The translations under genes were made by a program, and so were the position numbers. 11,072 nt of DNA from the IMG/VR virus record IMGVR_UViG_2698536560_000011, positions 1 to 11,072 of that record; one strand, written 5' to 3'. Below the pieces are notes generated by a model. That model worked only from the letters and a program-made list of their open reading frames with translations, did not search any database and was not told where the DNA came from. Source of the stretch: a virus (taxonomy: Duplodnaviria > Heunggongvirae > Uroviricota > Caudoviricetes). Of the stretch, positions 3,761 through 5,300 are shown piece after piece. Numbering within the stretch: position 1 is the first letter of the stretch; each line of letters starts with the position of its first letter.

Positions 3761-3979
3761 TTAACGTTTAGTCACTGTTATGCTCGTGCTGAAAGGAGGA
3801 TATGCTGAAGTTGAATGCACTTCATCATAAACTGCTACCACATTACCACTTTCATCTAATTGATGATAAACATACTCATCATTATCGCGTCCTCTTTTTA
3901 ATCCTTTCCACTCCATTGATACTTGTTCAATAGTATGGTTATCTGGAATTGAAAATTTCTTTCTAACATTATCTGACAT
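3761..3979 (-). CDS. hypothetical small protein, 72 aa, second gene of the cargo operon
   Basis: Starts 13 nt after the stop of the 435-aa ORF on the same strand, with an AAGGG Shine-Dalgarno 8-12 nt upstream of the ATG. Lies in the AT-rich cargo region. No family recognised. Confidence 0.6.
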   Translation of the reverse strand: MSDNVRKKFSIPDNHTIEQVSMEWKGLKRGRDNDEYVYHQLDESGNVVAVYDEVHSTSAYPPFSTSITVTKR

Positions 3980-3992
3980 AATTAAAGCCCTT

Positions 3993-5300
3993 TCATTTTT
4001 GTCTAATTAAAATATCTTTAACATTCGACCATTCATTTAACAAACCAATATTCACATTACCATCTGCAACTCTCACATTAATAACCTCCGGTCTTAAGCC
4101 TGATAATTCATGAAGAAGCCTTGAGCTTTCAATAGAAAATGCTTTGAGAGAGTTAAATCCAATTATCACCCGATTAAAATACTGCTCACTTATTCGCTGA
4201 ACACCTAAAGTCAAATCATTTGGATCCAAACATATCTGTATTGCGAATTGCCCATCCATTATGAACACAGCGTGTACATTATTTTTAAGAAACTCAGCTC
4301 TAACTTCTTGAAGATCAGTTAAAATATAAATTAAAACATCATTCTGCAAAAAAGCAACCAACGCCTCTTTTTCTAGGGACAAAGTAAAAGGATATGCAGT
4401 CCCCCAACTTTCCTCAGGAGTAAGCGAGTGTATTAGTGTCGACTCCCCAATATCTATACCAATACAATTTTCCATTGCGTTTTCTAGTTGCTTTTTAGGC
4501 AAGTCAGTTCTTACACAAAAATAAACAAGCCCCCTTTCAACCTCTTTACTAGCATATCCATCAATGAGGGATTGTTTTATTAAGAAGTTGATATCCTCAT
4601 AAAAGGTAATTTCTTCACCTTTATTTTCAACCCTATATGCATCCAATCCATTTTTGAAAGAAGGTGCATAGTCATTTCTATAAAACTCTGATAACTTATG
4701 CAATTCAACCAATTGTCTGCTAACTCTTGCCCTAGGTTTTTTTTGCATTTTTCTCTTTACCTCAATAGGGACAGGATCACTCATTCCTAACGCACAAACA
4801 TCCCCATGACGTATGACATTAGTAATATCACACAAAACCACTGGAATATTGCATCGCAGCCCCATTTTGAAAACCTTCCACTCTTGCCTGAACCCCTCTT
4901 TTCCTGAAATAAAACCTGCATCTTCCTTTACATTATAGTCATCATCATAATATAGAACTTTCAAATTAGAGTTCGGAACATAAATATTTGCAATGCCATC
5001 CCCGAAAAATCGCCACGTGACTATCAATTCTTTCCTAGCACTCAGCCTAGAATCTATTTTTTTAAGAATTTCCTTTATACCTTTTGACTCTACCTTATTT
5101 AACCTCCCACTTCCTTTTATTTTCTTTAAGCGCGCACGTGCTTTCTTAAGTCGGTGTATTCTCTTTTCTTCCTTAACTATTTTTCGTATTAAGAACTTAT
5201 GAAACTCAAGCAATAAATAATAATTACCCGGTTCTTTTTTTAAATCACTTATAAACCTTGATGCTTCAACAAAACCACATTGATATTGAGGAAAACGCAT
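3993..5300 (-). CDS. hypothetical protein, 435 aa, first gene of the cargo operon; candidate anti-phage defence or abortive-infection effector
   Basis: A 1308-nt ORF in clearly AT-rich DNA, where stops are frequent, so it is very unlikely to be spurious. GGGGTGG Shine-Dalgarno upstream of the ATG. Strongly basic Lys/Arg-rich helical stretch at about residues 35-90 and a second basic patch (KRKMQKKPRAR). No Walker A or other motif I can name. Position is between int and cos. Confidence 0.85.
   Translation of the reverse strand: MRFPQYQCGFVEASRFISDLKKEPGNYYLLLEFHKFLIRKIVKEEKRIHRLKKARARLKKIKGSGRLNKVESKGIKEILKKIDSRLSARKELIVTWRFFGDGIANIYVPNSNLKVLYYDDDYNVKEDAGFISGKEGFRQEWKVFKMGLRCNIPVVLCDITNVIRHGDVCALGMSDPVPIEVKRKMQKKPRARVSRQLVELHKLSEFYRNDYAPSFKNGLDAYRVENKGEEITFYEDINFLIKQSLIDGYASKEVERGLVYFCVRTDLPKKQLENAMENCIGIDIGESTLIHSLTPEESWGTAYPFTLSLEKEALVAFLQNDVLIYILTDLQEVRAEFLKNNVHAVFIMDGQFAIQICLDPNDLTLGVQRISEQYFNRVIIGFNSLKAFSIESSRLLHELSGLRPEVINVRVADGNVNIGLLNEWSNVKDILIRQK

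Follow-up and report, generated by a model that had tools for sequence, protein, structure and literature searches.

Organisation of the locus

We analysed an 11,072-nt stretch of viral DNA (positions 1 to 11,072 of the IMG/VR record IMGVR_UViG_2698536560_000011, Caudoviricetes; hereafter the window), in which a satellite of the P4 type carries a two-gene cargo cassette at 3761–5300. The larger gene (3993..5300, minus strand) opens from an ATG and encodes a 435-aa protein (WP_001774582.1), a candidate stand-alone defence nuclease. The smaller gene (3761..3979, minus strand), also read from an ATG, encodes a 72-aa protein (WP_001774581.1) and is a separable gene, probably an accessory one. The 13-nt intergenic spacer (3980..3992, minus strand), read directly, contains the Shine-Dalgarno-like AAAGGG of the small gene and no terminator. 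Both cargo genes converge on int and sit upstream of psu. A first-pass annotation, made from the letters alone, had placed two such minus-strand reading frames 13 nt apart and convergent with int, and these coordinates are confirmed.

The host element is a P4-type satellite, as witnessed by int, psu, delta, a sid-like gene, alpA, C4 RNA and an exact cos. The variable slot is bounded on its left by the P4-type integrase gene int (2453..3673, plus strand; Pfam Arm-DNA-bind_3, Phage_int_M and Phage_integrase, 3e-30) and on its right by the cos core GGCGAGGCGGGGAAAGCAC (5653..5671, minus strand), which matches the 19-nt P2/P4 sequence exactly (chance expectation 0) and is followed by psu (5836..6408, minus strand; Pfam Psu 2e-87). 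The cassette lies between these borders, and the earlier description of its position as the int-cos slot of a P4-type satellite can be taken literally. The int-psu locus is a published hotspot of P4 elements (PMC9122126). The cargo had also been described as more AT-rich than the satellite core, and it is: GC content is 0.32–0.36 over 3601–5400, as against 0.45–0.50 in int and 0.51–0.59 across psu-sid.

Four nucleotides past the stop of the small gene begins a hairpin, AAAGATGGCTC-ttatt-GAGCCATCTTT (3730..3756, minus strand; sequence read directly), which is kept in a diverged copy of the cassette in another P4-like element (L048). It was missed by a consensus terminator scan because it lacks a T-run, and it is probably a terminator common to the cargo operon and the convergent int. 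On the minus strand upstream of 5300, no convincing consensus match to a sigma-70 promoter for the operon was found. Between cos and the operon, about 280 nt upstream of the large-gene ATG, lies a homopolymer (5579–5589, G on the minus strand), the length of which varies among copies at least 99.4% identical: G11 in the window, G9 in two copies (L001 and L047) and G8 in a third (L065). This could reflect slipped-strand variation or assembly error.

Both reading frames are real genes under purifying selection. Against the diverged P4 copy, dN/dS is 0.17 for the large gene and 0.11 for the small gene, and for the latter it is 0.06 against copies borne by P2-like prophages. Furthermore, dS against the diverged P4 copy is the same for both genes (0.40); therefore, the two genes diverged together.

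The large protein has a PD-(D/E)xK-type motif and three domains

Neither cargo protein falls into an annotated family. As the first-pass annotation had anticipated, profile searches of both proteins gave no Pfam match above cut-off and nothing in NCBIfam or PADLOC v2. For the 435-aa protein, the sole match in the profile libraries is phrog_14906 (2.7e-38), a family of unknown function. In PADLOC-DB v2.0.0, no model matches either protein at E ≤ 1, and none matches nine of ten diverse members of the large-protein family, the tenth giving only a chance-level match to CARF (E 0.029). Likewise, neither full-length nor core-only profiles of the large protein found anything relevant among PDB sequences.

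The family itself is large. A word-indexed search returned 44 relatives of the 435-aa protein, and an exhaustive profile search returned 974 representatives of clusters at 50% identity at E ≤ 1e-3, 431 of them at E ≤ 1e-30. Nearly all of the 974 are 390–445 aa long and align end to end; therefore, the unit of conservation is the whole three-part architecture described below.

Among 171 members, the positions conserved at 96–100% are E45, G100, D101, G129, G136, E140, D158, T160, N161, R164, G166, D167, E180, K182, R192, Q196, D210, R223, E255, G257, P304, F317 and R377. Four of these, E140, D167, E180 and K182, reach 99–100%, and the E140/D167/E180-x-K182 motif that they form is the most conserved feature of the family. 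The first-pass annotation had seen no obvious nuclease signature in this protein; the motif, of the PD-(D/E)xK type, overturns that statement.

The AlphaFold2 (AF2) model of the protein has a mean predicted local distance difference test (pLDDT) value of 85 and a predicted template modelling score (pTM) of 0.84. In the model, residues 1–110 (4971..5300, minus strand) form a basic bundle of three helices (residues 4–22, 27–63 and 69–107). This region has a pI of 10.4 and 28 Lys/Arg residues, and the Lys/Arg-rich helical N-terminus noted at first sight is thus borne out. At the end of the bundle, G100 and D101 are 98–100% conserved. Removal of the N-terminal region lowers the AF2 confidence of the nuclease core to about 50, which suggests that the bundle packs against the core. 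The C-terminal domain (residues 230–400; 4101..4613, minus strand) is predicted to be of the alpha/beta type. It is acidic (pI 4.8) and has no recognisable relative and no solved counterpart.

Between the two lies the predicted Hjc-like PD-(D/E)xK nuclease core (residues 135–215; 4656..4898, minus strand), which includes E140, D158, D167, E180, K182, R192 and Q196. In the AF2 model, it consists of a helix at 135–149 (carrying E140), strands at 154–156, 168–170 (with D167 just before it) and 177–179 (followed by E180-V-K182), a helix at 191–208 (with R192, R195 and Q196) and a strand at 211–215. As modelled, this alpha-beta-beta-beta-alpha-beta order, with the motif residues so placed, is the canonical core of PD-(D/E)xK nucleases.

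The archaeal Holliday junction resolvase Hjc (PF01870; 1GEF and 1HH1) has the same minimal core with the same order of elements. The cargo residues E140, D167, E180 and K182 align with E9, D33, E46 and K48 of Hjc/Hje, and the spacing from D to E is 13 residues in both proteins. The alignment itself shows that these four Hjc/Hje residues are invariant; we take them to be the catalytic ones. The motifs align in register with those of the large-protein core at an hhalign P of 2e-4. Hjc matches in scans of the family are weak: when all 37 members of a family set were scanned, the only matches, to Hjc and R.HinP1I, were of this kind. Unlike the resolvases, the large protein has two additional domains. 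Considering the motif together with the modelled fold, we think it quite likely that the large protein is a metal-dependent DNA endonuclease.

A nuclease of this kind might act as a modification-dependent restriction enzyme resembling those of Type IV, whereby the flanking domains would read a modification of phage DNA and the core would cut only DNA so marked. A solo PD-(D/E)xK gene that is tolerated in many hosts without a methylase, ATPase or antitoxin would suit such an enzyme. No recognisable reader domain for modified DNA (SRA, PUA/EVE, winged helix and others) was found fused to the nuclease core. We regard this version as doubtful; it is a sub-case of the defence nuclease that we favour below, not its contradiction.

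Previous records of the cassette

Although the cassette had been called unrecognised, it is already catalogued and has been flagged by machine learning, in both cases with no function assigned. Table S1 of Rousset et al. (2022; PMC9122126) has the entry "hypothetical + hypothetical, WP_001774582 + WP_001774581" among its P4 loci, and row 37 of the curated table of that study gives both cargo sequences with no domain or comment. The row carries the value 43, which we read as the number of occurrences, against 5,251 P4 loci. Table S2, in which that study gives the sequence of every system it tested, does not contain the motifs of the family.

The DefensePredictor study (2026; PMC13092281) includes WP_001774582.1 in its Table S10, which is devoted to 1,041 clusters that are predicted but uncharacterised. 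There, the protein has a mean log-odds of 5.22 (range 4.72–5.94) and neither an HHblits nor a Foldseek defence homologue, and it is assigned to the category "Predicted novel defense gene". The same study reports that no domain is more frequent in its validated hits than the PD-(D/E)XK nuclease. The large protein thus stands in the list of predicted novel defence genes of the paper that defines the DS systems, but it is not among the 118 transcription units cloned there, and neither its accessions nor the family motifs occur in Tables S6–S8, which list the cloned systems. Literature searches of main texts found neither the cargo accessions nor the PHROG identifier; the accessions were met in supplementary tables only.

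According to the available text of a 2026 survey of P4 and P2 elements (PMC13586616), six of eight randomly picked unknown P4 loci were validated as defence systems (Crouga, Bandua, Aernus, Toga, Reve and Hailong), and none of the descriptions in that text fits the cargo cassette. The other two loci gave no protection, and the cassette might be one of them. What the current analysis adds to these records is a proposed active site, the size of the family and its fixed three-domain architecture, its occurrence in P2 and P4 hotspots as well as in defence islands of Proteobacteria, and the finding that the two genes are separable modules.

Distribution and genomic neighbourhood

In E. coli the cassette is rare. 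It was found in 7 of 5,426 complete genomes, each time in a P4-like element beside ssrA. The diverged P4-like element L048 carries it in the same slot, although its sid and psu are only 28% and 66% identical to those of the window. Over the stretch corresponding to 2241–6392 of the window, by contrast, int is 93% identical and the cargo genes are 85% (large) and 92% (small) identical. Since int and cargo are so similar despite the diverged sid and psu, the int-cargo block seems to have been passed from one satellite backbone to another as a single unit.

P2-like prophages carry the pair as well: in Pantoea, and likewise in two viral contigs, it has gpA/dinI on one side and the portal gene on the other. 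Rousset et al. (PMC9122126) had defined this gpA-portal slot as their second hotspot. The P2-borne pair is only 57% (large) and 75% (small) identical to that of the window; therefore, the two slots have not exchanged it recently. Within the cassette, nucleotide similarity between P4 and P2 copies covers the two coding sequences only and stops at the stop codon of the small gene. Outside it, only the cos region is common, and the regions of promoter and terminator differ.

One E. coli strain, TUM9757, has an otherwise near-identical satellite with an IS21 element in the gene at the sid position (12378–15247 of locus L001; the region 17434–19999, with an IS66-family element, lies further on). 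Its int-cargo-psu segment is intact; it follows that this satellite is decaying while the cargo is kept.

Outside the Enterobacterales, the large gene of Cupriavidus shares an integrase island with genes of the Mrr, HNH and ADP-ribosylglycohydrolase types, and that of Pseudomonas adjoins a gene for a PIN protein, with prophage genes close by; a further 35 loci also carry it. Across the Proteobacteria, members of the family occupy the hotspots of both P4 and P2 elements as well as defence islands. To describe its company, we scanned 134 flanking open reading frames, two per side at 34 loci; the figures that follow are raw counts with no matched background, and those for the ATPase families overlap on the same proteins. 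By Pfam, the neighbours include AAA_21 (8), AAA_15 (6), SIR2_2 (3), OLD-like TOPRIM (3) and ThsB_TIR, Mrr_cat, HNH_2 and UvrD-helicase (2 each), in addition to integrases and transposases; by PADLOC, they include AriA (8), GajA (6) and Old (5). The company that the large gene keeps is clearly that of defence islands.

These data also bear on whether the protein could serve the mobile elements themselves, as a structure-specific nuclease of the Holliday-junction type in their recombination, replication or packaging. It is true that a junction resolvase is the nearest relative that could be detected for the core and that one source names a homologue 'Holliday junction resolvase'. However, the gene occupies accessory hotspots and not core positions, is found in a small minority of P4/P2 elements (the row value of 43 against 5,251 P4 loci given above), has genes of the Gabija, OLD, SIR2 and TIR types for neighbours in non-phage islands, and encodes the two domains that resolvases do not have. 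Moreover, a tblastn search of 50,697 deposited phage genomes (INPHARED) with the large protein returned no match. We therefore consider such a housekeeping role for the elements very improbable.

The small gene is a separable partner

The family of the 72-aa protein comprises 24 clusters, all of about 72 aa, with H15, G26, G30, D32, Y36, Y51, T57, S58, P61, P62, I67 and K71 invariant. Neither Pfam, NCBIfam, PADLOC nor PHROGs assigns it to a family. A Pfam Colicin-DNase match (E 0.031) lies below the curated cut-off, and the corresponding idea of a miniature HNH or colicin-type nuclease was rejected: the residues that would make up the motif (H39, N46 and H55) vary among homologues, and the invariant residues listed above do not suit it. 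In size, the protein resembles the RNA-binding attenuation protein TRAP (MtrB; 74–75 vs 72 aa), with which it has in common a G-x3-G-x-D...V-x-A stretch. TRAP is its best sequence match in the PDB. The match is weak (HMMER E 0.13), and hhalign against the 72-aa family gives a P of 0.012 and a probability of 3.6% over 35 columns only.

Most members of the large family have no 72-aa partner. By tblastn, the small gene is found at none of the 35 non-enterobacterial genome loci of the large gene, nor does it accompany an Enterobacter homologue that lies where a P2-like prophage ends. We considered whether a diverged small partner accompanies the distant homologues and rejected this; the small reading frames downstream of them are mutually unrelated and look spurious.

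Conversely, the small gene travels alone. Solo homologues occur in Cronobacter prophages (on the opposite strand, between terS and lysis genes), in another prophage beside holin genes, in Pectobacterium near an Hcp gene, and on Yersinia Rep3 plasmids, where one adjoins the gene for a DUF2971 protein and no remnant of the large gene lies beside it. In the Cronobacter lambdoid prophages (L057–L059), the homologue at 6001–6219 has as neighbours, at 6503–10142, a DUF2441 gene and a pair encoding a Ser/Thr kinase and a PP2C phosphatase, an arrangement that recalls the kinase-phosphatase defence modules of prophages. On the Yersinia plasmids (L009–L011, 7645–9198), it is flanked by an unannotated 91-aa reading frame and the DUF2971 protein (Pfam 3e-5), with an MmeI-type restriction-modification gene and an Endonuc-like_C protein nearby. 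These surroundings may be another small defence-type neighbourhood.

Within P4 and P2 hotspots, on the other hand, the order is large-then-small in every copy, with a junction of 0–13 nt. Copies in P2-like prophages have a TAA-ATG junction, with an AAGGAG ahead of it that still belongs to the 3' end of the large gene. The pair persists even where the large proteins are only about 50% identical. Given the fixed order, the short junction, the TAA-ATG arrangement with its AAGGAG and the equal dS, the pair is stable within the Enterobacterales; it is an enterobacterial combination of two separately mobile genes.

Two other explanations of the pair have to be weighed here. First, the genes might be two single-gene cargos linked by chance: a stand-alone defence nuclease and, in the 72-aa protein, a prophage 'moron' of separate function (such as a small factor for exclusion or regulation) that does not interact with it. 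The solo occurrences on both sides speak for this: the large gene in all 35 non-enterobacterial loci and in Enterobacter, and the small gene in Cronobacter and another prophage, in Pectobacterium and on Yersinia plasmids. Chance linkage fits poorly, however, with an order and a short junction kept in every hotspot copy (of the overlap type, TAA-ATG, in the P2 copies), with equal dS, with persistence of the pair to about 50% identity, and with the fact that similarity between P4 and P2 copies starts and stops at the borders of the two-gene block. On these grounds, we hold independence of the two genes to be rather unlikely.

Second, the pair might be a toxin-antitoxin or addiction module, in which a constitutive nuclease toxin and a 72-aa antitoxin would stabilise the satellite without direct sensing of phage. 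A tight two-gene operon on a mobile element, with a nuclease-type large protein and a small partner, is what such a module would look like. Yet the putative toxin lacks the partner, or any conserved small reading frame, in most lineages, the partner occurs without the toxin, the toxin-first order is atypical, and the same solo architecture is seen across the 974 representatives. An addiction module is accordingly quite improbable. More generally, the two genes do not form an obligate toxin/antitoxin (Type II) or sensor/effector pair, given the solo large gene in 35 of 35 non-enterobacterial loci and the solo small gene in prophages and plasmids.

Other features of the window

Beyond psu, the satellite continues with an Ogr/Delta zinc-finger gene (6482..6982, minus strand), the reading frame in the sid position (6979..7731, minus strand), an AlpA-type regulator gene (8265..8531, plus strand) and the C4/isrK immunity RNAs (8590..8875, by Rfam). 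The P4 immunity region is complete: c4-a1b1 (8590–8642), isrK (8603–8680) and the C4 antisense RNA (8788–8875) all score above the Rfam gathering thresholds.

The left end of the window is an island separate from the satellite. It encodes a 472-aa protein (1–1419, minus strand) that matches the PADLOC models PD-T7-1 (2.8e-69) and PD-T7-5 (2.6e-35) and, upstream on the same strand, an unannotated 156-aa reading frame (1524–1994). Both are AT-rich (GC 0.37–0.39). A relationship between the 435-aa cargo protein and this PD-T7-1-like neighbour was tried and rejected (hhalign P 0.05, 15 columns), as was one between the cargo protein and a Pfam-verified Mrr_cat protein. The island and the P4 element have 28 bp in common (2241–2268): the match of the island to other E. 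coli genomes stops at 2268, and that of the P4 element starts at 2241, a point that falls within the 3' end of ssrA in strain TUM9757. From this overlap, we conclude that the window holds two tandem islands at an ssrA attachment site. Neither ARAGORN nor Rfam found a tmRNA gene in the window.

Interpretation

Considering slot, neighbourhood and family together, we find it likely that the cassette has an anti-phage role. The fuller statement, that it is phage-defence cargo of a P4 hotspot with the 435-aa Hjc-like PD-(D/E)xK nuclease as effector and the 72-aa protein as accessory, is the one we favour by a modest degree; confidence in it is roughly the product of that in the anti-phage role and that in the nuclease. 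Of the suggestion that this is an undescribed defence system, the defence part thus gains from the company of the large gene elsewhere and remains at the strength just given, whereas 'undescribed' has to be qualified, the cassette being listed in two catalogues.

The proposed mechanism is as follows. The 435-aa protein would do the work, as a metal-dependent endonuclease that acts on DNA through a minimal Hjc-like PD-(D/E)xK site made up of E140, D167, E180 and K182, its core packed between the basic N-terminal helical bundle and the acidic C-terminal domain. Before infection, these flanking domains may hold the nuclease inactive by autoinhibition, or they may restrict it to a certain DNA substrate; upon infection by a phage, the nuclease would cut phage DNA, or DNA generally. 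We propose that the large gene is tolerated alone, with no methylase, ATPase or antitoxin, because its own flanking domains control the nuclease. The 72-aa protein would be an accessory gained in the Enterobacterales, co-transcribed and co-inherited with the nuclease and, in the P2-borne copies, presumably translationally coupled to it. Most likely, it would modulate the activity or range of the nuclease and be dispensable for the core mechanism.

The comparison with known systems places this proposal in context. Single-polypeptide effectors that join a PD-(D/E)xK nuclease to regulatory or sensing domains and act free of partners are found in defence islands, Shedu (SduA, DUF4263) being an example. 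The large protein has no sequence relation to Shedu: neither it nor ten diverse members of its family match the Shedu/DUF4263 models of PADLOC and Pfam. The nuclease is C-terminal in Shedu and central in the large protein, and the flanking domains differ. With the validated systems of the P4/P2 hotspots (gop-beta-cII, PARIS and old/tin, in addition to Crouga, Bandua, Aernus, Toga, Reve and Hailong), the cassette has in common small size, AT-rich composition and the slots themselves, int-psu/cos in P4 and gpA-portal in P2. As judged by PADLOC v2 and the published descriptions, it is not homologous to any of them, and it has no ATPase, TOPRIM, kinase, HEPN or transmembrane component.

A bolder version of the proposal would make the large protein the type of a new three-domain class of self-regulated defence nuclease, with the acidic C-terminal domain as a sensor fold not seen before and the 72-aa protein, possibly a TRAP-like ring-former, recruited in the Enterobacterales as a trigger-sensing or gating subunit. 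We regard this as speculative and, as it stands, unlikely. If true, it would describe a two-part immune system assembled from two modules, each of which also works alone.

The practical value is modest: the P4 hotspot is known to abound in systems that await a test, no defence effector is commoner than the PD-(D/E)xK nuclease, and the cassette had already been catalogued and flagged. The contribution lies in a specific proposed active site (E140, D167, E180 and K182) and in the prediction that the small gene is dispensable for core activity. Should the cassette prove protective, it would add a defence family of wide distribution in the Proteobacteria (about 970 clusters, defined at 50% identity) that no current annotation model recognises. 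Such a family would combine a minimal nuclease core of the resolvase type with two domains that have no counterpart among solved structures. The cassette would also be a clean case of hotspot cargo that occupies P2 as well as P4 slots. Since nuclease and 72-aa protein are also found circulating separately, it would amount to a natural experiment in modularity.

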